Shown: positions 54,436 to 64,000, counted from the first letter of the stretch. The stretch: 64,000 bases of DNA from Deltaproteobacteria bacterium (GCA_026129095.1 JAHCIT010000008.1:7021-71020); one strand, 5' to 3'. The notes: generated from the sequence alone by a model not told the origin. A program made the numbers and translations.

Positions 54436-55133
54436 TTCGGCGAGCTGCGTACATCGCGGGTCCGATCGGAAAGCTGCTCACGGGAACCGCCGACCAGCGG
54501 GTCATCACTGCCCTCGATGCGCCCGCCGGCTTCGGCCAGCTTGACGACAAAATCCACCACCTCGCTGGAAGCCCAGTCCACCGGACCAAAAATCTTCTTT
54601 GCCACGTTGCCTTCCAGATCAATCACGTAGGTTTCGGGATAACGGAACGTCCCGTACCGCCGGGCGATCCGGCTGTCCTTGTCCCAGATGACCGGCATGG
54701 AGATGTTCAGGCGTCCGGTGAAGTCCCGGGCAATGCTCTCGCGGACATCCTCGTTGATGGCGATCAGTTCCACACCCTTGTCGCGGGTCAGCCGGTACAG
54801 CTGCTCCAGGTCGGGCATCTCCTTGATACACGGGTCGCACCAGGAGGCCCAGAAGTTCAGGATGATCACGCGCCTGCCCCGTTCGGCGGCCAGATCGAAG
54901 GTTTCGCCTGTCAGGAAGGTTCCGGTAAAGACCGGCGCCTCTTGGCCGGGCAGCGGGAACCGGTTGTCCATGTCCTTCGGAAACCGGAGGAACATGCCGG
55001 CTACCACGGCCACGGCAATGCCCAGAACCACCAGAAAGCCGGTAATGGACGGCTTTTCGGCCTCACGCGGCAGGGCGCCAGGAGCGTTGGGTTCGGTTTT
55101 GCCTGCGTCTGTCATCAGCTTCACCACGGTCAC
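54432..55133 (-). CDS. TlpA-family thiol:disulfide oxidoreductase (thioredoxin fold, membrane-anchored)
   Basis: 233 aa; TM anchor then WASWCDPC active-site motif. Confidence 0.85.
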   Translation of the reverse strand: MTVVKLMTDAGKTEPNAPGALPREAEKPSITGFLVVLGIAVAVVAGMFLRFPKDMDNRFPLPGQEAPVFTGTFLTGETFDLAAERGRRVIILNFWASWCDPCIKEMPDLEQLYRLTRDKGVELIAINEDVRESIARDFTGRLNISMPVIWDKDSRIARRYGTFRYPETYVIDLEGNVAKKIFGPVDWASSEVVDFVVKLAEAGGRIEGSDDPLVGGSREQLSDRTRDVRSSPN

Positions 55134-55372
55134 GGCTCAATGGCCAGCGCCTTCTGCAACGCATCCCGGTCCAGCCGGTAACGGCAGACTTCCCTGCCGT
55201 CCACTTTGACCACCGGGATGTGGATTTCAAGCTCGGACAGGAGGCGGGCGTCGGCTTCGATATTGATCTTGTGAACCCGGAAACCAAGACCAGCCGCCAG
55301 CCCTTTCAGTTCCTTTTCTGCCTCATCACAAAGGCAGCAGCCGGGGCGGCCATAAAGCTCAACCGTTTTCAC
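55130..55372 (-). CDS. glutaredoxin-like small thioredoxin-fold protein
   Basis: 80 aa; N-terminal VELYGRPGCCLCDEA (CxxC); overlaps the TlpA-like gene by 4 nt. Confidence 0.7.
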   Translation of the reverse strand: MKTVELYGRPGCCLCDEAEKELKGLAAGLGFRVHKINIEADARLLSELEIHIPVVKVDGREVCRYRLDRDALQKALAIEP

Positions 55373-55397
55373 AAGACCATCCGGCGCCAGCCACCGG

Positions 55398-57566
55398 TCA
55401 GTTCGTCCCCTGCCAGTCGATCTGCTTGACCGGCTTCATTCCCTTGAACTGCTCGTAAACCCGGTTGTTCACGAACAGCTCGAACAGGTCGCGGTCCAGA
55501 TGGTTGGCATCCACTTCCGCCTTGATGATCTCCAGCGCCTTCGGGATAGGCATGGGCGGCTTGTAGGGACGGTCACGGGCCGTCAGGGCCTCAAATATGT
55601 CGAGAAGCGCCAGAATCTTGGCCTGAGTGAGAAGCTGCTCGCTCTTCAGGCCATGCGGATAGCCCGTTCCGTCGATCTTCTCGTGATGGGAACCAGCGAT
55701 GTGCGGGACGTTCTTGAGGGACTTCGGCCAGGGAATCTTCCGCAGGATTTCCCAGGTGTAGGCAATGTGGCTCTCGATGATCTCGCGTTCCTTTCCGGTC
55801 AGGTTCCCCCGCCGGACGACCAGGTTCTCGACCTCGAATTCGCCGAGCAGCGGCTTTACCGTGCCATCGGTGTCGGTCATCGTCCGCTTCGAGATTTCCT
55901 GGACCTTGGCCACTTCCTCGTCCGAAACGAACCCCCGCTTGTTGATGTCCATCAGCAGCAGGATTTCCGACTGGATGCGGTCGATGTCTTCCTTCACCTT
56001 TCCCGCCGGCTCGTCGCCGGGCCTGAGATCCCCCGCCCGGTAAGCGGCTTCCATCCGCTGGAACTTGAGCATTTCGAACCGGCGGCGGACGGCTTCCATC
56101 TGCTCGGGCGCAAGCTTGTGGGCCTTGGTGAGCACCGCCTCACGGACTGCGATCTTGCCCACGTCATGCAGATAGCTGGCGTATTTGAGTTCCCGGAGTT
56201 CCTCGTCGCTGAACTTCACCCCCGCAAACGGCCCCGATGTCTGCTCGTTGATGATCCGGGCCATCGTCTGGGCGTACTGGACCAGACGGTAGCTGTGACC
56301 GCCAGTGGCCGTATCCCGGTATTCCAGTGTGGCGGCGAACGACTGGGCCAGCGCCTCGAACAGTTTTTCCACGTCGTCGATCAGTTTCACCTTCTCGATC
56401 GAAACGGCCGCCTGCGAGGCCAGCGACAGGAGCAGCTGGCTGTCGGCATCGTCGAATATCGTGACGTGCCGGGGGGTATCCTCCGGCTTGTCGAGAATGG
56501 TTGCGAAGTTCTTCTTCTTGTTGATGAGCTGGATGACGCCCGTGATCTCGCCCCGGTGATTCCGCATCGGTACCACCAGCATTGACACGGAACGGTAACC
56601 CGACTTCTTGTCGAAACCGGAGTTGAACGAGAACGGCGAACCTTCCGGCAGGCTATAGACGTCGGCGATGTTCAGTATCTCGCCCTTGGCAGCCACATAG
56701 CCCGAAATGGACGCCGTGCTCACCGGCATGGCGAACGAGACAAACGGGATGCTGAGCGAATCGTTCTGCGAGCAGGTGAACCGGAGCTGCTTCGGGAACT
56801 CCTTTTCACGTCGGTACGGCAAGGGCGGGTTCTTCTGGTTTTCCTCGGGCTCACCCTCCTCGATGAGATAGAGCGAGCCCGCGTCGGCACTTGTCGCCCG
56901 CCGGCACTCAAACAGGATCATGTCCAGAAGCCGCTGCAGGTTGCTTTCGGTCGAAAGGGCCGTCCCGATCCGGTAGAGCTTGTCGATCTGGTCGGAGGCG
57001 CGGCCAAGCCGGGCCTCCATGTCGCCCAGACGCAGGCTTGAGCCCACCAGTTCCAGCGAGTTCAGCACCGACAGCGCCAGCGCATCGGGATCAATCGGCT
57101 TGGAAACGAGTTCCGTCACCCCGAATGCCTTGACCAGTTTCTGGTTATGGGCACGCCGTCTGGGGGAATACATTGCCACCACCCGGTGCGGAGAACTGCG
57201 GCTGGCGAGAACCTTGGCAAGCCCCCTGGTGTTGGCAGGCAGATGATCGAGATCCATGACCACGGCCGCCGGGAAATCGTGCTGAAGCGTTTCCTCCAGA
57301 CTCTCGACGTCTTCGACCCACAGTTTCGGCGTGCCGGCCGGTATCTCCTTGCTCGCCCTGGAGACGGGGACGGAGCGTTCAACCGCCAGGAAGATGACGG
57401 ACGGGCGCTGGTCTTTCGCCATTGACGCGGTGCTCATCGGTTTGCCGATCCCCTTATATAGGCGCTTCAGAATGCCGCCGGTTCGCCCTGCTGCTGTGCT
57501 ATCCGGTGACAACGCTATCACACCGTTCCGAAACGGCAAAAGCAGGGGAATACCCCGTTGCCCCAC
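55398..57566 (-). CDS. REC-like/GAF/HD-GYP domain protein (putative c-di-GMP phosphodiesterase)
   Basis: 722 aa; C-terminal HD-GYP blocks YLHDVGK and HHEKIDGTGYPHGL; central GAF-like region; N-terminal receiver-like fold with atypical acidic pocket; start probably the internal ATG near 57437. Confidence 0.88.
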   Translation of the reverse strand: MGQRGIPLLLPFRNGVIALSPDSTAAGRTGGILKRLYKGIGKPMSTASMAKDQRPSVIFLAVERSVPVSRASKEIPAGTPKLWVEDVESLEETLQHDFPAAVVMDLDHLPANTRGLAKVLASRSSPHRVVAMYSPRRRAHNQKLVKAFGVTELVSKPIDPDALALSVLNSLELVGSSLRLGDMEARLGRASDQIDKLYRIGTALSTESNLQRLLDMILFECRRATSADAGSLYLIEEGEPEENQKNPPLPYRREKEFPKQLRFTCSQNDSLSIPFVSFAMPVSTASISGYVAAKGEILNIADVYSLPEGSPFSFNSGFDKKSGYRSVSMLVVPMRNHRGEITGVIQLINKKKNFATILDKPEDTPRHVTIFDDADSQLLLSLASQAAVSIEKVKLIDDVEKLFEALAQSFAATLEYRDTATGGHSYRLVQYAQTMARIINEQTSGPFAGVKFSDEELRELKYASYLHDVGKIAVREAVLTKAHKLAPEQMEAVRRRFEMLKFQRMEAAYRAGDLRPGDEPAGKVKEDIDRIQSEILLLMDINKRGFVSDEEVAKVQEISKRTMTDTDGTVKPLLGEFEVENLVVRRGNLTGKEREIIESHIAYTWEILRKIPWPKSLKNVPHIAGSHHEKIDGTGYPHGLKSEQLLTQAKILALLDIFEALTARDRPYKPPMPIPKALEIIKAEVDANHLDRDLFELFVNNRVYEQFKGMKPVKQIDWQGTN

Positions 57567-57593
57567 GGACTCCGGGGGAGTACCTTAAGAAGC

Positions 57594-59399
57594 GTGACCA
57601 CTCCGAACCGGATCACTGTGCCCGCCCTGACCCAGATGCTGCTGAAGGGAGGGCTGATCGAGGCCGAGGCCGCGCGTGAAATCACATCCAGCGAGCGGAC
57701 GCTCGCGGATGCCATTTCCAAGGAACGCAGCGCCATGTATTCGCGTCTGGGCCTCACGGGCGAGGCAGCCCGGCCCTCTCCGGTGGATATCGTCGCGCAC
57801 CTGAACCTCCAGATTCCCGCCCAACCCGGCAAATACCTGAACGAGGACCGGATAGCCCAGTTTCTCGCCGAAACGTACAAAATCCCTTACAAGAAAATCA
57901 TTCCGCTGGAACTGGACCCCAACTTCGTCACGACCCAGTTACCCAAGGCCTATGCCCAGCGGCATATGGTCATACCCCTGTCGAATGACAACGGCGTGAC
58001 CGTCGTGGCCATTCCTGACCCGGCGGCATTGCCGGTACTGCAGGAACTGGAGCAGCGGCTTTCCCGCAAATTCAGGCCCGTGATCTCCTCGCGCTCGGAC
58101 ATCCTCAAGGTCATCAGCGAGTTCTGGGGCCTCCGGCAATCACTGGAGAAGGCAAAGCACGAGTTCCAGGGCGAGACGGTGGACCTGGGAAACCTGGAAT
58201 CCCTGTTCGATCTCAAGGCCGGCTCAGAAATCGAGGCCAACGACCGGCAGATCATCCGGATCGTTGACTACCTGTTCGCCTATGCCATCGACCAGCGGGC
58301 AAGCGACATCCACTATGAGCCCAAGCGGGACCGCGCATCCATCCGGCTGCGGATCGACGGCCATCTGCACGAGGTCGTCCAGCTTCCCCGCCCGGTTCTC
58401 AATGCCATCGTCAGCCACATCAAGACCCGCGCCCGGCTGGATATCGCCGAAAAGCGCCGTCCGCAGGACGGACGCACGAAGGTCTCCCATTACGGCCGGG
58501 AGGTGGAGATGCGCGTCTCCATCGTCCCGGTGGCATTTGGCGAAAAACTGGTCATCCGACTTCTGAACGCCAGCGCCTACCTGCAGCCACTGGACAGCCT
58601 CGGATTCTTCCCGCGTGACCTGGTGCAGTTCCGGTCCATGCTCGCTTCGGCGAACGGGCTCGTCCTCGTCACCGGTCCTACCGGCAGTGGAAAGACGACA
58701 ACGCTCTATTCGGGTCTGAAAGAGGTGTCCCGACCTGACCTCTCCATCACGACAATCGAGGACCCTATCGAGATGGTGATCGAGGAGTTCAACCAGATCG
58801 CCGTCAATCCCAAGATCGAGCTCAGCTTCGCCGATGCCCTGCGGGTGGTGCTCCGGCAGGATCCCGACATCATCATGGTGGGCGAGATACGCGACCCCGA
58901 AACCGCACAGGCCGCCATCCAGGCGGCACTCACCGGCCATCTGGTGCTGGCAACGTTGCACACGAACGACGCTCCCACGGCCGTGACGCGGCTTCTGGAC
59001 CTTGGCGTGGAGGACTACCTCATCGCCTCCACGGTGATCGGCGTGGTCGCCCAGCGTCTGCTCCGCTCGGTCTGCAACGATTGTGCCGAGGCGGCCTCGC
59101 TCACACCCGAGCAGATGGAGGAGCTGAAACTGCCCGCCAAGGGCATGCCGCCGCTGCCGGTCAAGAAGGCCATCGGCTGCCCGGCCTGCCGCTATTCCGG
59201 CTATCAGGGGCGGGCCGGCATCTATGAAGTGATGCCGATGACGGACAAGATCCGCAAGCTGGTGAGGACCAATCCCGACGTGGTGGAAATCCGCAAATCC
59301 TCCATTGATGACGGCATGATCACGCTCCGCGAAGCAGCCGTCAAGAAACTCGCCATGGGCGTCACCACGTTCGAGGAAGTGCTGCGTGCCACCGTCTGA
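57594..59399 (+). CDS. GspE/PilB-family secretion/pilus assembly ATPase
   Basis: Walker A GPTGSGKTTT, Asp/His boxes, C-terminal tetracysteine CNDC...CPAC; start placed at GTG 57594 (track start 57558; ATG 57636 is an alternative). Confidence 0.9.
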   Translation: MTTPNRITVPALTQMLLKGGLIEAEAAREITSSERTLADAISKERSAMYSRLGLTGEAARPSPVDIVAHLNLQIPAQPGKYLNEDRIAQFLAETYKIPYKKIIPLELDPNFVTTQLPKAYAQRHMVIPLSNDNGVTVVAIPDPAALPVLQELEQRLSRKFRPVISSRSDILKVISEFWGLRQSLEKAKHEFQGETVDLGNLESLFDLKAGSEIEANDRQIIRIVDYLFAYAIDQRASDIHYEPKRDRASIRLRIDGHLHEVVQLPRPVLNAIVSHIKTRARLDIAEKRRPQDGRTKVSHYGREVEMRVSIVPVAFGEKLVIRLLNASAYLQPLDSLGFFPRDLVQFRSMLASANGLVLVTGPTGSGKTTTLYSGLKEVSRPDLSITTIEDPIEMVIEEFNQIAVNPKIELSFADALRVVLRQDPDIIMVGEIRDPETAQAAIQAALTGHLVLATLHTNDAPTAVTRLLDLGVEDYLIASTVIGVVAQRLLRSVCNDCAEAASLTPEQMEELKLPAKGMPPLPVKKAIGCPACRYSGYQGRAGIYEVMPMTDKIRKLVRTNPDVVEIRKSSIDDGMITLREAAVKKLAMGVTTFEEVLRATV

Positions 59400-60426
59400 G
59401 GTCCATCCCCCAAAATCGGTAGCAGTGGTGGGGGCCGGTTCATGGGGGACCGCGCTCGCCCACCTGCTGGCGTCCAAGGGCTACGAAGTCCGTATCTGGG
59501 GCAGGGACGCCGACGTGGTGGAAAGCCTCAACCGCCGCCACACGACCAAATACCTCCCCGGCGTCAACATACACCCCAGCCTCCGGGCCACGGGGGAGCT
59601 CACTGAAGCGGTCCGGGGCGCGTCGATGGTCGTGGGGGCCGTTCCGAGCCAGTTCACTCGGAATGTCTTCGAGCAGGTCCGCGATCACCTGTCACATGAC
59701 GCCATCGTCGTCATCGCTTCCAAGGGCATTGAAACCACGACACTCATGACCATGAGCGAGGTGATGCAGGATGTCCTGCCGTTCGAGCGGCATGGCCGCC
59801 TGTGCTTCATCTCCGGGCCGAGCTTCGCCCTCGAAGTAGCCAGGGGTTTTCCCACCGTCGTCACGGTGGCCGGCGAGAACCCGCGTATCGCCCGGACGGT
59901 CCAGCACTGGTTCCATGCGCCCTCTTTCCGGGTGTACACGAGCTATGACGTGGTCGGGGTGGAACTGGGCGGCGCACTCAAGAACGTCATCGCCATCGCA
60001 GCCGGGGCGCTGGAAGGCATTGGGGCGGGAAACAACATCCAGGCGGCCCTCATCACCCGCGGCATCGCGGAAATGACCCGGCTCGGCATCAAGCGGGGGG
60101 CCAATCCCCTCACCTTCGCGGGACTCACGGGCATGGGCGACCTCATCCTCACCTGCACGGGACAGCTCTCGCGCAACCGGAGCGTCGGCCTTCGGCTCGG
60201 CAGGGGCGACAAGATCGACGGCATTCTCAAGGGAATGGACCAGGTGGCCGAAGGCGTCGAAACCTCGCGCTCGGCCTATATGCTCGCCCAGAAGGAAAGC
60301 GTCGAGCTGCCCATCATGGAGCAGGTCTACCGGGTGCTGCATGAGGGCAAGGAGATCCGGCAGGCCATCCAGGACATCATGGCCCGTGAGCTGAAGGCGG
60401 AACTGGACTACCTGACGAGCGGATAA
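59386..60426 (+). CDS. gpsA: NAD(P)H-dependent glycerol-3-phosphate dehydrogenase
   Basis: 346 aa; VAVVGAGSWGTALA Rossmann motif; GTG start overlapping the 3' end of the upstream ATPase gene by 14 nt. Confidence 0.92.
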   Translation: MPPSEVHPPKSVAVVGAGSWGTALAHLLASKGYEVRIWGRDADVVESLNRRHTTKYLPGVNIHPSLRATGELTEAVRGASMVVGAVPSQFTRNVFEQVRDHLSHDAIVVIASKGIETTTLMTMSEVMQDVLPFERHGRLCFISGPSFALEVARGFPTVVTVAGENPRIARTVQHWFHAPSFRVYTSYDVVGVELGGALKNVIAIAAGALEGIGAGNNIQAALITRGIAEMTRLGIKRGANPLTFAGLTGMGDLILTCTGQLSRNRSVGLRLGRGDKIDGILKGMDQVAEGVETSRSAYMLAQKESVELPIMEQVYRVLHEGKEIRQAIQDIMARELKAELDYLTSG

Positions 60427-60429
60427 AAG

Positions 60430-61170
60430 CTAGTTGGCGTCCCGTCCCTGATTCCACCGGGTCCATTCATCGTTAAGCGTCTTCTCGCTGATGGGTGCGA
60501 TTGCGGGCGGCGGCCCGCCCGCGAGCCCCACTGTCACCGACTGGCGCGTCTGGATGAGCAGCTTGGTCCACTCCTCGCGGGAAATGTCACGCGGTCCCGG
60601 CACGTCACGCGGGGCGACGATAATCTGCCCCGGTTTGGGCACGTCAATCGGCCTGAACGGGTTGTAGACCTCGACCGCTCCCTTGAATACGTCGATCTTC
60701 AGGTTGTCGCCCGTGACGGCGTAGTTGAACACCGTTCCGCGCACGGCGGCTCCGGCAAAGGGCGAGTTGATCTTGAAGTCGTCGTTCGCGCCAAGCGCCG
60801 AAATGGACGCCCAGACCTGGCCCTGCTCCACGTCCAGCTGGATATCGCGCTTCTGCTGTTCCTGCTCCAGCAGCTTGACGAGATCGACGATGGTGTTCTC
60901 GTCCAGTCGGACCGTCTTGCCCGATTCGATGGAAACTTCCGCCCGGGACTTGCGCTTGGTCTGCATGGTGTCGCCCGATTCGACGGTGGACTTCTCCGGC
61001 ACGGGAACCCAATCGGTTCCGGCCTTTTTCTTTTCCGTCTCGCCGCGAACATATGTCACCAGCCCCCGCTCGTCGGCGGCATCCGTGCCCGCGGCCAGCT
61101 GGAAGCTGAAAACCACGAAACCGGACAGGACCACGGCGAACGAAACGGCGGCGGATTTGAGCGGACTCAT
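60430..61170 (-). CDS. secreted FecR-domain protein
   Basis: 246 aa; signal peptide MSPLKSAAVSFAVVLSGFVVFSFQLAAG; beta-rich C-terminal region consistent with FecR-type sensor domains. Confidence 0.68.
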   Translation of the reverse strand: MSPLKSAAVSFAVVLSGFVVFSFQLAAGTDAADERGLVTYVRGETEKKKAGTDWVPVPEKSTVESGDTMQTKRKSRAEVSIESGKTVRLDENTIVDLVKLLEQEQQKRDIQLDVEQGQVWASISALGANDDFKINSPFAGAAVRGTVFNYAVTGDNLKIDVFKGAVEVYNPFRPIDVPKPGQIIVAPRDVPGPRDISREEWTKLLIQTRQSVTVGLAGGPPPAIAPISEKTLNDEWTRWNQGRDAN

Positions 61171-61280
61171 CAGAACTGTCTCCTGCTTGCCCGTGCTTCC
61201 CCTTCAGGAAGAAGCCGGCACTTCGGGCCGGACGCTATTAGAACCTGCCGGAACGGGCAATTTCGGTGATTCACGTTACA

Positions 61281-64000
61281 TTATTCCCCGGTGGAGGCAA
61301 TTGGTCCGTAAAGCGCCGTACCGGCCCAGGCGAACGGGTGGCCATACGTCCCGTCCAGATCACGGGCCGCGCCGAGGAAGGCAGCAGCCGGCAACTGCCC
61401 CTTCTGCAGTGCCCCATACCCCTGCCGGTAGATCCGGGCGCCCACTGCGCCCCGCCGCCAGCCAGGCAGCACCCACGGATTCCGTGCGCCCCGCATGAGT
61501 GATGGCGCCCGGAGCGCCAGAACCGTAACCGAATCCGGCGGTACGCCACCGTCCATCACGCTTGCCGAGAGGGATGTGCTCTCGATCACGGAAATCCGGT
61601 CCGGCCCGCAGGTAACACCGGCCGGGGAAACCGGCGAAATCCTGAGCCGGTCGGCGCAGTGGAGCCAGCCCCGCGCAGGCCCCCGCGTTTCGATCACGGT
61701 CCGTTCCTGTCCGAAGAAATCGGCGCCGCCCCGGCTGTCGAGATCCAGCCCGAAGCCAGCCCGGACCCGTGACGGGTTCGCCCCGGCCATGCGACTCCGG
61801 TCCGGACGGAACTCCTGACGGACGGCTACCGGTTCCAGTTCCCACAGTGCCCCCAGCGACGACACGGCGAGCCGGGGAGACCAGACACCTCCATCCTGCC
61901 GGCGGGCCCCCAGCAGTGGGGCCGGAAGCTGCTCCAGCAGCCCGTCAGGCACCAGCATCACGGCAGCGCCCGGTGGAAGGGTATCCAGCAGCGTCCGGAT
62001 TTTCCCGGGCAGGAACTTCTCCCGGAAGGAATCCCATACCGGTTCGTAGCGGCCCTGTGAGCGAACTGTCTCGGCAAGGGTTGGAACGGTTCTGGCCAGC
62101 GATCCGGGTTCGAACGTCAGCTCCGAGGCATCCACCCCGCGGCTGTCCAGCGTCCACCAGAGAATGGCTCCCTCTCCATCGAGATCGACCGGAACCAGCA
62201 CCACCGAACCCGGAGCGACTCCGGGCAGCGAAAAGTCCGGACTGTCGCGGAGAAGCGCCAGCGCCGGGTGCGCCCCCGGCGGCATGGCAACCGGGTATCT
62301 GCGCCGGGCACTCACCGCCTCTGCCACCCGGTCATGCCAGGCAGCACCCGGGACACCATCGGGCAGAAGGACCGGCTCCAGCGCGCGACGGGAAAGCCCC
62401 GTTTCCCACATCCGGTCCCGAAGGAGTTTCCGGCGGCCGCGCTCCCAGAACCGGAGGGCCGCGGGAGGATCGCCGGCCGACAGTTCGCGGGCCGCCCGGC
62501 GGAATATGGCGGCCTTGGCCACGGCGAGCCCCGACCGCGCTTCCGTGGCGGGCGAGGACGGAGGTTCCAGAAGCCATGCCTCGGCGGCTGAAACAGCCGG
62601 GAACGGTGCAGCCGTCCGCGCAATGAGGCCGGGATCGCCCAGTTCCCGGGCGGCGGTGTGCAGGGATTCCATGTCTTCTCCGCCAGCATTTTCCAAGCGG
62701 GATGCGCGAAGCCAGCGAAGTTCAAGTTCGGTCCTGCGGTGGCCGCTGGCGGCAGCGGAGGCGACGGCTTCATCCAGAAATTTCCGACCTTCCGCCATGC
62801 GGCCTGAATCCAGCGCAATCAGCGCCAATTGCCTGAGAGCGCCGGAAAGTCCCGCCGGATTTTCCCGTTGCCGGTCGATCCCCGCCGCTTCAGCGAGGTA
62901 AAGCCGTGCCTCATCGTGCTGGCCGAGCACACGAAGCGATGTCCCGAGTGTGACCAGAATGGCAGCCACCCGGCCGGGATCGGCCTCACGGCGCGCATGA
63001 ACGAGCGCCCCTTGCGAAAAACCGACCGAAATCTCCTCGCGGCCCAGTGACCAGTAGAGAAGTGCCGCGAGGTTAAGCAGGTCGGCGGCGGGGCCATCGC
63101 CCGCAGGGGCCGCCAGCGACGCCGGCCTTTCCTTAAGGAGCGGCGCGATAACTTCTATCGCCGAATCCGGCCGCGCCAGCTGCCTCAGGGCCGTCGCCCG
63201 GTAGAGCCGCGCCTGAAACTCCAGCTCCCCCAGCCCGCGCCGCGCCGCCTCGGTGGCGAGTTCTCCCAGCGCGGTTTCGGCAACCTGATACCGCCCGCGG
63301 GCACTTTCCACGAGCGCCAGTGTGAGCCGGTTGCGGAAAACCGCCTGCTCCAGCGCGGCGGTTTCGTCTCCAGGCTGGGGAGAGCCCTGTGCCTGACGCA
63401 GCAGAGACGATGCAATCCGGATGGCCGCCTCCAGGTCGGCCGCCGCACCGTCGTGGTTTTCCGTCTGTTCGTATTGCACGCGGCCGCGGTTGAACAGAAG
63501 TTCGGCACGGCTCGCTGCATCGCCAGCGGCCTCCGCATGAGCGATGGCCGATGTATACCGCTCCACCGCCGCTTTCCCCTGCCCCGCGAGCGCGAGCCCC
63601 CGCCCCCATTCGGATTCGATCACCAGCAACATCTGCCGGTTCGCCCCCGCCGCCCGAATGGCATCCTCGAACCGCTCGAAGGCATCTTCAAACCGGTTGG
63701 CGCGCAGGTAGTCCTGACCCGCGAAGTACAGGGCCTGAGCCGCCTGCACCGTAGCGCCCGCTTCGGCGTAGATCCGCGCGAGCCGGTCCTCGTATGCCGC
63801 CGCCCGCTCCCACTCGCGCATCTGCTTGAGGGCATACACCGCCGCATTCAGCATCTGGACCAGCGTGCGCGGATCGACACCGATCACGTCCATCGTCGTC
63901 ACGGCCCGCTCGGCGGCCAGCGCCGCCTCCGGCCAGCGTTTTCCGGCTGCCCCGGAAGCCGCCCGGTTGGCAAGATCGTTGATGAGCGTCCGGGCAAAGG
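61281..64000 (-). CDS. TPR-repeat protein with C-terminal CHAT-like (caspase-family) domain, 5' end outside window
   Basis: Track ORF 61281..63902, but the frame stays open to base 64000; TPR-like helical repeats N-terminally; C-terminal block GTYGHPFAWAGTALYGP resembles the CHAT C-terminal signature. Confidence 0.75.
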   Translation of the reverse strand, partial: FARTLINDLANRAASGAAGKRWPEAALAAERAVTTMDVIGVDPRTLVQMLNAAVYALKQMREWERAAAYEDRLARIYAEAGATVQAAQALYFAGQDYLRANRFEDAFERFEDAIRAAGANRQMLLVIESEWGRGLALAGQGKAAVERYTSAIAHAEAAGDAASRAELLFNRGRVQYEQTENHDGAAADLEAAIRIASSLLRQAQGSPQPGDETAALEQAVFRNRLTLALVESARGRYQVAETALGELATEAARRGLGELEFQARLYRATALRQLARPDSAIEVIAPLLKERPASLAAPAGDGPAADLLNLAALLYWSLGREEISVGFSQGALVHARREADPGRVAAILVTLGTSLRVLGQHDEARLYLAEAAGIDRQRENPAGLSGALRQLALIALDSGRMAEGRKFLDEAVASAAASGHRRTELELRWLRASRLENAGGEDMESLHTAARELGDPGLIARTAAPFPAVSAAEAWLLEPPSSPATEARSGLAVAKAAIFRRAARELSAGDPPAALRFWERGRRKLLRDRMWETGLSRRALEPVLLPDGVPGAAWHDRVAEAVSARRRYPVAMPPGAHPALALLRDSPDFSLPGVAPGSVVLVPVDLDGEGAILWWTLDSRGVDASELTFEPGSLARTVPTLAETVRSQGRYEPVWDSFREKFLPGKIRTLLDTLPPGAAVMLVPDGLLEQLPAPLLGARRQDGGVWSPRLAVSSLGALWELEPVAVRQEFRPDRSRMAGANPSRVRAGFGLDLDSRGGADFFGQERTVIETRGPARGWLHCADRLRISPVSPAGVTCGPDRISVIESTSLSASVMDGGVPPDSVTVLALRAPSLMRGARNPWVLPGWRRGAVGARIYRQGYGALQKGQLPAAAFLGAARDLDGTYGHPFAWAGTALYGPIASTGE

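Follow-up and report, generated by a model that had tools for sequence, protein, structure and literature searches.

CHAT domains are known as active caspase-like proteases that act mostly in cytoplasmic signalling and defence, as in Craspase. In TPR-CHAT proteins, such as Csx29 of the type III-E CRISPR 'Craspase' and the cyanobacterial HetF-type proteins, a TPR array is followed by a CHAT-type domain, and in separase, a caspase-fold relative of CHAT, helical repeats are followed by a pseudo-protease domain and then by an active protease domain. A system of a different kind is the YdbH-YnbE-YdbL operon of Escherichia coli, in which YdbL acts on a lipoprotein, YnbE, that partners the AsmA-like bridge YdbH (PMC11126948, PMC13464000). 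Here, we describe a gene that invites comparison with all three. It lies at the end of a 64,000-nucleotide stretch of DNA from a Deltaproteobacteria bacterium (hereafter the window), which holds the 3' third of the gene and, downstream on the same strand, a gene for a FecR-domain protein. Our analysis suggests that the giant protein is an exported lipoprotein with two dead CHAT modules encoded in a conserved gene cassette, and that it would serve an envelope system as a scaffold in the periplasm, without catalysis, with the cassette products as partners and possibly docking an AsmA-like bridge. We put the probability of this reading at roughly 0.6.

The gene is truncated at its 5' end by the edge of the window: the minus-strand frame runs through 905 visible codons without a stop up to base 63998 of 64000, as a preliminary description of the window had stated. 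The listed 873-residue open reading frame (ORF; 61281..63902, with a GTG start at 63902) has no upstream stop in the window, and this GTG is internal to the real gene. The N-terminus, which the preliminary description had proposed to seek beyond base 64000, was recovered together with upstream DUF1318 and AsmA-like genes from a public Logan contig (L001) that matches the window over a 5-kb overlap (0 mismatches) and extends past its edge; this and further contigs were reached by exact-sequence look-up with the FecR protein. The whole gene spans 2169..9890 of L001 (2,573 codons), and exact-sequence look-up identifies its product as NCBI MCW5830050.1, which comes from a 208-kb contig of a Deltaproteobacteria metagenome-assembled genome (MAG) and is named "PD40 domain-containing protein" in that database. 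From the N- to the C-terminus, the protein comprises a lipobox Cys, a PD40 (TolB-type) beta-propeller, TPR array 1, CHAT-like module 1 (~1380-1665), TPR array 2, and CHAT-like module 2 (2250-2573). The window covers TPR array 2 and module 2 (Table 1), while module 1 and the N-terminus lie outside it. The N-terminal propeller corresponds to a Pfam PD40 match (E=4e-19) with a weak Tricorn_N match. In the visible part, roughly residues 1-560 of 905 are helical, and the TPR-like repeats noted in the preliminary description are confirmed by Pfam matches to TPR_12 (54.4 bits against a cut-off of 30.1, in four stretches) and TPR_8 (3.7e-7, 30.2 bits against 25.7), with additional TPR matches in the full protein and its homologues. 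Residues 1701-1800, in TPR array 2, are the best-conserved 100-residue stretch of the giant protein (68-72 % identity between lineages), and the linker that follows the array carries a conserved motif, W.L.E.PSS..E.R.GL..KAA.

The family is rare and divergent. An exhaustive phmmer search with the C-terminal 439 residues against 1.84 billion protein representatives returned three proteins, none of them a CHAT protein: a 97 % identical twin, a 779-residue fragment (42 % identity), and a 2,557-residue homologue (34 % identity). Pattern scans of genome contigs supplied a MAG homologue (L004) and two fragments (L005 and L006), of which L004 and L005 came from an alignment-based scan, and giants of 2,592, 2,660, and 2,668 residues (L015, L016, and L017) were reached via their FecR homologues, by a FecR search followed by a reading of the neighbourhoods. 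Seven lineages were found in total, three of which are clusters of the 1.84-billion-representative search. The L016 and L017 giants are 24-26 % identical to the window protein, and in two close lineages the identity of module 2 per 100-residue block is 17-41 %.

The relationship of the two modules to CHAT emerges from profile-profile comparison. The comparison set consisted of ten CHAT proteins from plasmid records, each verified by Pfam (CHAT E-values of 1e-41 to 1e-74). With five family sequences from four lineages, module 2 aligned to the ten CHAT domains in hhalign with a probability of 96.7 % (E=4e-10, 281 columns), which rose to 97.8-98.9 % with seven lineages (98.9 % in global mode; E-values of 1e-13 to 1e-16); a further profile-profile run against the same domains gave 97.65 % (E=2.6e-12, 282 columns). 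For module 1, hhalign gave 52 % with three lineages and 94-95 % (E-values of 1e-7 to 1e-8) with six. Such a climb in probability as lineages are added is the behaviour of true homology. Among the controls, 20 column-shuffled family alignments remained at or below 0.3 %, the reversed alignment gave 0.2 %, and the TPR segment gave 0.1 % against CHAT, while a sliding scan of the whole 2,573 residues placed the CHAT signal only in windows overlapping 1351-1830 and 2101-2573, with all other windows at or below 0.5 %. The best-aligned parts of module 2 are its start ('vPDG.L..LP'), where D685 and L691 are invariant in 7/7 lineages, and its end ('W.v.D..a..lm..fY ... hP.yWA.F.l.G'), of which the C-terminal ~48 columns alone reach 94.6-96.9 % against CHAT. 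A low-confidence AlphaFold2 (AF2) model of module 2, for which no CHAT protein was used as input, was compared with the PDB in Foldseek; Craspase TPR-CHAT/Csx29 chains appeared at ranks 4-20 (E-values from 1.6e-3, template-modelling (TM) score of about 0.26), a retrieval that lends weak but independent support to the homology. The top matches of this low-confidence query, above the Craspase chains, were 7sqc_R1 and 7sqc_R0 (E-values of 5e-5 and 9e-4, TM score of about 0.2), both of them chains of ~2,080 residues from the C1 central-pair apparatus of the Chlamydomonas cilium. As judged from these profiles, modules 1 and 2 are true but very divergent CHAT homologues, invisible to the curated hidden Markov model (HMM). 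Because no direct similarity is detectable between the two modules (BLASTP, hhalign), a 'tandem duplication' is deduced only from their common CHAT homology.

Neither module retains the catalytic dyad. In the verified CHAT set, the relevant motifs are '..iiHlAtHG', with the catalytic His before the Gly, and 'LvvLSACeT'. In module 2, the catalytic-His column reads R/R/V/E/V/R/A across the seven lineages (Arg784 in the window protein), and the only cysteines, C781 and C797, which are also the sole Cys residues of the visible 905, both lie upstream of the nucleophile strand. The position facing the CHAT Cys varies between hhalign runs (M, D, or a gap) and is aligned at low confidence, while an LSAS/LSAC register drawn by eye puts S813 there. 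In module 1, the His column is occupied by S or P and the Cys column by F/N/V/A. With the dyad missing in both modules across all seven lineages, both are predicted to be pseudoproteases, and the loss is, on these alignments, older than the divergence of all seven lineages. C781 and C797 are the only family-wide cysteines, 15-16 residues apart in 7/7 lineages, and because the pair sits in what is predicted to be an exported protein, they probably form a disulfide. Compared with CHAT and with L016/L017, the window lineage has also lost some 20 residues ahead of the His strand. Within the comparison sequences, a Tolypothrix plasmid CHAT protein (L007 548-1948, Pfam E=3.8e-67) keeps its Cys, but its catalytic His is replaced by Thr ('HLATTG'); partial dyad loss thus also occurs within the canonical CHAT family.

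Several claims of the preliminary description bear on this region. The C-terminal sequence that it quoted (...GYGALQKGQLPAAAFLGAARDLDGTYGHPFAWAGTALYGP, also ...YGHPFAWAGTALYGP) is present as quoted and is recognized as the CHAT block by hhalign, and its motif is conserved among homologues, with H887, P888, W891, and G898 invariant in 7/7 lineages. The assignment to CHAT itself, for which a model search was proposed, had a mixed outcome: strictly taken, the negative Pfam search speaks against it, whereas profile-profile comparison shows the homology. The candidate His was located in the string GWLHCADRL, which is indeed there, but H780 corresponds to the first, non-catalytic His of HxxxHG, and the catalytic column holds Arg. 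The suspicion that the protease was degenerate proved well founded, as the His/Cys dyad is lost in every lineage.

The signals at the N-terminus point to export. A Cys after a hydrophobic stretch aligns in 6/6 full-length homologues (SGC, AGC, ASC, AAC, ASC, and GAC), in the contexts ...PHSG-C, LAG-C, LAS-C, LAA-C, LAS-C, and LGA-C and with Ala as the next residue in all six; the -3 residue of the lipobox in the window lineage is His, which is atypical. On the strength of this predicted lipobox in every full-length member, the giant protein is classed as an exported lipoprotein, and carrying such a signal, it would work outside the cytoplasm. Sec export and lipidation would anchor it to a membrane, and the Ala at +2 would suggest sorting to the outer membrane if the E. 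coli rule holds.

The giant gene belongs to a conserved cassette of at least four genes, encoding an AsmA-like protein (~1,250 residues), a DUF1318 (YdbL family) protein, the giant lipoprotein, and the FecR protein in this order, with gene ends that overlap or abut (in L001, the junctions of the upstream DUF1318 and AsmA/DUF748 genes and the giant gene are at 1585/1582 and 2172/2169). This order is kept in every lineage with DNA available (L001, L003, L004, L015, L016, and L017), as supported by AsmA, DUF748, YhdP, and PF07027 matches in all of these except L004, where it is recognized by ORF size only. Five lineages also have the genes after FecR in common (gpsA, a T2SSE/MshE ATPase, and a GAF-HD-GYP protein), and synteny alone therefore says little for them. 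In L017, labelled Bdellovibrionota, other genes lie past FecR (SulP/STAS, GSDH, and SLT-LysM) and the four-gene block is intact despite this change of flank, which argues for a functional unit. A second AsmA/DUF748/YhdP-type gene of more than 1,040 residues lies on the opposite strand about 9 kb downstream of the L017 cassette (L017 19149-20957, minus strand). In L003 (2-2585), further genes lie upstream of the block. One encodes a LipL46-like protein of 407 residues (NCBIfam E=2.5e-11 across its whole length, under the cut-off), another a second FecR-domain protein, and another a protein with an SLH domain. The upstream ORFs of L004 (3414-5494) agree in size and order, with lengths across L003/L004 of 407-413 residues for the LipL46-like protein and 277-280 residues for the second FecR; Pfam and NCBIfam were run on the upstream genes of L003, and those of L004 were matched by ORF size and order. 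The unit may thus comprise six genes of envelope proteins. Across the window, G+C content is 0.67-0.69 over the giant gene (61000-64000) versus 0.61-0.64 for its neighbours (55000-61000), which probably reflects an Ala/Arg/Gly/Leu-rich composition (A 17.7 % and R 10.7 % in the visible protein) and not a foreign origin.

When compared to TPR-CHAT proteins, the giant protein shares the succession of a TPR array and a CHAT-type domain, with a beta-hairpin/helix segment in front of that domain, as well as the motifs at which the domain starts ('vPDG.L..LP') and ends ('hP.yWA.F.l.G'). Unlike them, it falls below every Pfam threshold, has lost the catalytic His and Cys, and carries two units per chain; it is also predicted to be exported and lipid-anchored, is fused to PD40, exceeds them in length by a factor of 2.5-4, and lies outside any CRISPR or defence context. 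By description, it resembles separase in having a long helical-repeat scaffold with tandem caspase-fold domains, at least one of them dead and serving binding or regulation, and differs in that both domains are dead, TPR arrays lie between them, and the protein is bacterial and extracytoplasmic. The cassette, in turn, recalls the operon of the YdbH-YnbE-YdbL intermembrane phospholipid bridge (PMC11126948, PMC13464000), where the gene of an AsmA-like protein likewise stands together, with overlapping ends, with those of a periplasmic protein of the DUF1318/YdbL family and of a lipoprotein; E. coli YdbL is itself annotated as DUF1318 and is the prototype of that family. The AsmA-like protein of the cassette, however, matches the AsmA, DUF748, and YhdP models and not YdbH, and the lipoprotein has 2,573 residues versus 61 in E. 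coli, with its gene placed after the DUF1318 gene and not before it. Compared by gene content, the cassette also differs in lacking a YnbE-like gene and in the addition of FecR-domain genes. The parts are already known (TPR-CHAT, PD40, FecR, AsmA-like, and DUF1318), and what is new is their setting in a protein predicted to be exported and lipid-anchored, the occurrence of the modules in tandem, a loss of catalysis that extends to the whole family, and the fixed association with AsmA-like and YdbL-like genes. Literature searches on CHAT with FecR, on periplasmic or lipoprotein CHAT, and on inactive CHAT found nothing relevant.

The FecR-domain gene was described beforehand as lying downstream on the same strand with a signal peptide, which agrees with our results apart from the spacer of 110 nt, given there as 111, and it is the conserved downstream partner of the giant gene in all seven lineages. 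These homologues establish it as a real gene and not a chance ORF. The FecR (PF04773) match scores 58.9 bits (cut-off 24). The N-terminus, MSPLKSAAVSFAVVLSGFVVFSFQLAA, is signal-peptide-like by eye, and since no Cys follows the signal sequence, the protein is not a lipoprotein; the domain is followed by a conserved tail, with a Pro-rich segment conserved behind the domain, and residues 170-200 form a conserved segment (NPF.P...P.DV.GP...S.EEW). Homologues are 40-81 % identical (73-81 % in close lineages and 40-46 % in distant ones), and a giant homologue lies upstream of them in every neighbourhood examined (73-81 % and 44-45 % identity). The FecR protein is thus far better conserved than module 2; its AF2 model has a predicted local distance difference test (pLDDT) score of 40. 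No sigma-factor or receptor gene was found at any locus examined, the neighbours in the window being the giant gene and gpsA, and the anti-sigma architecture of a cytoplasmic part and a transmembrane helix was not found in the protein. Its best NCBIfam resemblances are to Leptospira LipL45 and Lsa33 (NF033165 and NF047849; E=1e-14 and 2e-13), which share a secreted form with a single FecR domain (PF04773) and no anti-sigma or transmembrane part, although at 50-54 bits the matches are well short of the cut-offs of 350-420, and the FecR protein differs from these in having no lipobox and in being part of the cassette.

The spacer between the two genes contains one conserved element, a non-coding 18-mer with the consensus TGTAACGTG(A/G)ATCACCGA. 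It occupies the same position and is exact in L001-L006 and L015, and the remaining spacer is not conserved. It is exact in five lineages whose coding sequence alongside it is only about 35-45 % identical at the protein level. Together with the stop codon it forms T(A/G)ATGTAA, a stop-overlapping ATG-TAA 'start-stop', and it holds a small palindrome, GTGA-A-TCAC. In the 64-kb window it occurs once at up to 3 mismatches (0.05 expected); it has no Rfam match and is absent from the distant L016 and L017. A 35-codon ORF from a GTG within the 18-mer to the FecR start was rejected, as its frame and peptide are not conserved in L003 (by eye), and so was a sigma-54 or sigma-70 promoter, which matches the consensus poorly by eye and was not found there by a promoter scan. 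A weak terminator-like hairpin, CCGGCCCGAAGTGCCGG followed by CTTCTTCC (61215-61231, minus strand), also lies between the two genes and is not conserved in other lineages.

Table 1. Features of the giant gene and its downstream neighbour within the window.
Feature	Coordinates	Strand	Remarks
Gene of the predicted giant lipoprotein, 3' third	61281..64000	-	905 codons and TAA stop (61281-61283); visible residue 1 is full residue 1669
TPR array 2	62613..63998	-	Full residues about 1670-2130; Pfam TPR_12 (E=1.5e-14), TPR_8, TPR_MalT; sliding scan negative for CHAT
Helical linker from TPR array 2 to CHAT-like module 2	62256..62612	-	Full residues 2131-2249; helices in AF2, pLDDT 55-84
CHAT-like module 2, catalytically degenerate	61284..62255	-	Full residues 2250-2573, visible residues 582-905; hhalign
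VMLVPDGLLEQLP, equivalent of the CHAT N-terminal 'l-i-v-P-D-G-x-L-x-x-L-P-f' strand motif	61923..61961	-	High-confidence hhalign alignment
HCADRLRISPVSPAGVTC, equivalent of CHAT HxxxHG	61608..61661	-	H780 is the first His; R784 (61647-61649) in the catalytic-His column; Cys pair C781/C797
LSASVMDGGVPPDSVTVLALRAPS, expected site of the CHAT 'LvvLSACeT' strand and 'GLaRaF..AGA' helix	61500..61571	-	Without Cys
YGHPFAWAGTALYG, equivalent of the CHAT C-terminal 'hP-y-y-W-A-a-F-v-l-i-G' block	61305..61346	-	Most confidently aligned part of every hhalign run
Non-coding 18-mer TGTAACGTGAATCACCGA	61263..61280	-	Directly 3' of the giant stop codon
FecR-domain gene (NCBI MCW5830049.1)	60430..61170	-	246 residues; Pfam FecR E=6.8e-16; 110 nt past the giant stop codon

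Taken together, these observations suggest how the giant protein may act. It would extend into the periplasm as a non-catalytic scaffold, to whose propeller, TPR grooves, and two dead CHAT clefts partner proteins or peptides in extended form would bind. Foremost among the candidate partners would be the cassette products, namely the AsmA-like/YdbL-like pair and the FecR protein, which is much better conserved. If YdbH-YnbE-YdbL is a valid analogue, the giant protein might also dock or organise an AsmA-like intermembrane lipid bridge at the outer membrane, a step suggested by gene order and this analogy and by nothing else.

A number of observations weigh against this interpretation. With respect to fold, Pfam's CHAT model (PF12770, gathering score 24 bits) lies below every threshold in the giant protein and its homologues, as neither the 905 visible residues nor all 2,573 match it at E<=1 and five homologues do not match at cut-offs of E<=10 or E<=1; the PDB, searched by sequence and by profile, yielded only designed helical repeats (E>1); and the AF2 model of module 2, from four family sequences, has a mean pLDDT of 51, with 20-40 in the caspase-like core. 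The central region of the hhalign alignment is of low confidence, so the residue equivalences near the nucleophile are uncertain. With respect to function, localisation and lipidation are predictions, and what links the giant protein to the AsmA-like, DUF1318, or FecR proteins is gene order alone. The cassette contains no gene for a small outer-membrane lipoprotein like YnbE, which caps the bridge in E. coli, nor is there room for one between the overlapping AsmA-like, DUF1318, and giant genes, and the giant protein itself has no YnbE-family Pfam match. Finally, the lineages all belong to a single, rather narrow group of uncultured bacteria, and 5/7 have wider synteny in common. This rarity, with seven lineages of uncultured bacteria, also limits the significance of the finding.

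The alternative that survives best, though we regard it as unlikely, gives the same protein another role: it would tether or scaffold the outer membrane and cell wall in a Tol-Pal-like or SLH-linked manner, or form part of a surface/adhesion complex with LipL45/LipL46/Lsa33-like proteins, the AsmA-like bridge being functionally separate and merely adjacent. The N-terminal PD40 propeller is compatible with such a role, since TolB and other periplasmic PD40 propeller proteins are likewise exported with N-terminal PD40 repeats, although TolB is soluble, has about 430 residues, and lacks TPR or CHAT parts. The SLH-domain gene upstream in L003 fits as well, as do neighbours that resemble the Leptospira envelope lipoproteins/adhesins LipL46, LipL45, and Lsa33, all below cut-offs and, in the NCBIfam matches, far below. 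However, the AsmA-like and DUF1318 genes overlap the start of the giant gene and remain attached to it in 6/6 lineages in which the upstream region is seen, including L017, which argues against mere adjacency. A narrower version of the scaffold interpretation, in which the giant protein would be the outer-membrane docking and assembly platform of an AsmA-like lipid-transfer bridge in place of E. coli YnbE or TamA, with the YdbL-like protein as its chaperone and the FecR protein as a ligand in a dead CHAT cleft or TPR groove, strikes us as distinctly doubtful. Were it true, envelope lipid homeostasis would have taken over caspase-fold pseudoproteases as clamps for peptides in the periplasm.

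Much less probable is a non-canonical hydrolase, in which the CHAT-like fold would have kept its activity with catalysis moved to other residues, for instance Ser813 ('LSAS') with His780, or Cys781. In the five closer lineages, an SAS motif (in one register on LSAC) and an H-C-A motif are invariant, and there are documented cases of apparent pseudoenzymes whose catalytic residues have migrated (PMC10211241). Neither candidate is family-wide, however: the SAS position is F or L in L016 and L017, and H780 is replaced by Trp in L016. Cys781 is always accompanied by the Cys 15-16 residues on, for which a disulfide in an exported protein is the better fit, and module 1 offers no candidate residues either.

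An active TPR-CHAT sensor-protease forming a two-gene signalling or conflict (defence) module with FecR, a version of the two-gene sensor/protease module proposed in the preliminary description, now seems very improbable. Such a module would account for the TPR and CHAT-like architecture and for a FecR gene that is always downstream, and Csx29, like other known TPR-CHAT proteins, is a protease under regulation (partly from PDB descriptions). It is largely refuted by the missing dyad, with no catalytic His and no nucleophile-strand Cys in either module in 7/7 lineages, and the lipoprotein signal would place the protein outside the cytoplasm. PADLOC reported no defence family, giving only a weak generic TPR match for the giant protein (E=8e-5, 20 bits) and none for FecR, and the locus sits with envelope-gene neighbours among housekeeping genes (gpsA), without mobile-element or defence-island features. 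Nor do two genes describe it, as at least four are conserved and the full gene, at 2,573 codons, adds the lipoprotein signal, PD40 propeller, and second CHAT-like module. That the C-terminal region is no CHAT homologue at all, its PDG..LP and HP..W..G likenesses being chance or convergence in an Ala/Gly/Arg-rich protein, is scarcely tenable: it would be in keeping with the lack of a Pfam CHAT match at E<=10 and of a PDB sequence match, a phmmer search without CHAT proteins, and a low-confidence AF2 core, but not with a profile-profile probability of 97-99 % over 243-297 columns that rises with more lineages, with 20 shuffles, a reversed alignment, and 12 other segments of similar composition all at or below 0.5 %, with an independently found second module, or with a model that retrieves Craspase TPR-CHAT chains although built without CHAT sequences.

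We therefore return to the non-catalytic scaffold and what it would mean. At a practical level, both CHAT-like modules were missed by Pfam and by NCBI annotation, which is a warning for the annotation of such proteins. The family presents the TPR-CHAT unit in another setting: duplicated, dead in every lineage found, placed in a predicted exported lipoprotein, and fused to a TolB-type propeller. The fixed place of the giant gene behind AsmA-like and YdbL-family genes makes its product a concrete, testable candidate for anchoring or regulating long AsmA-like lipid bridges at the outer membrane in bacteria without YnbE.

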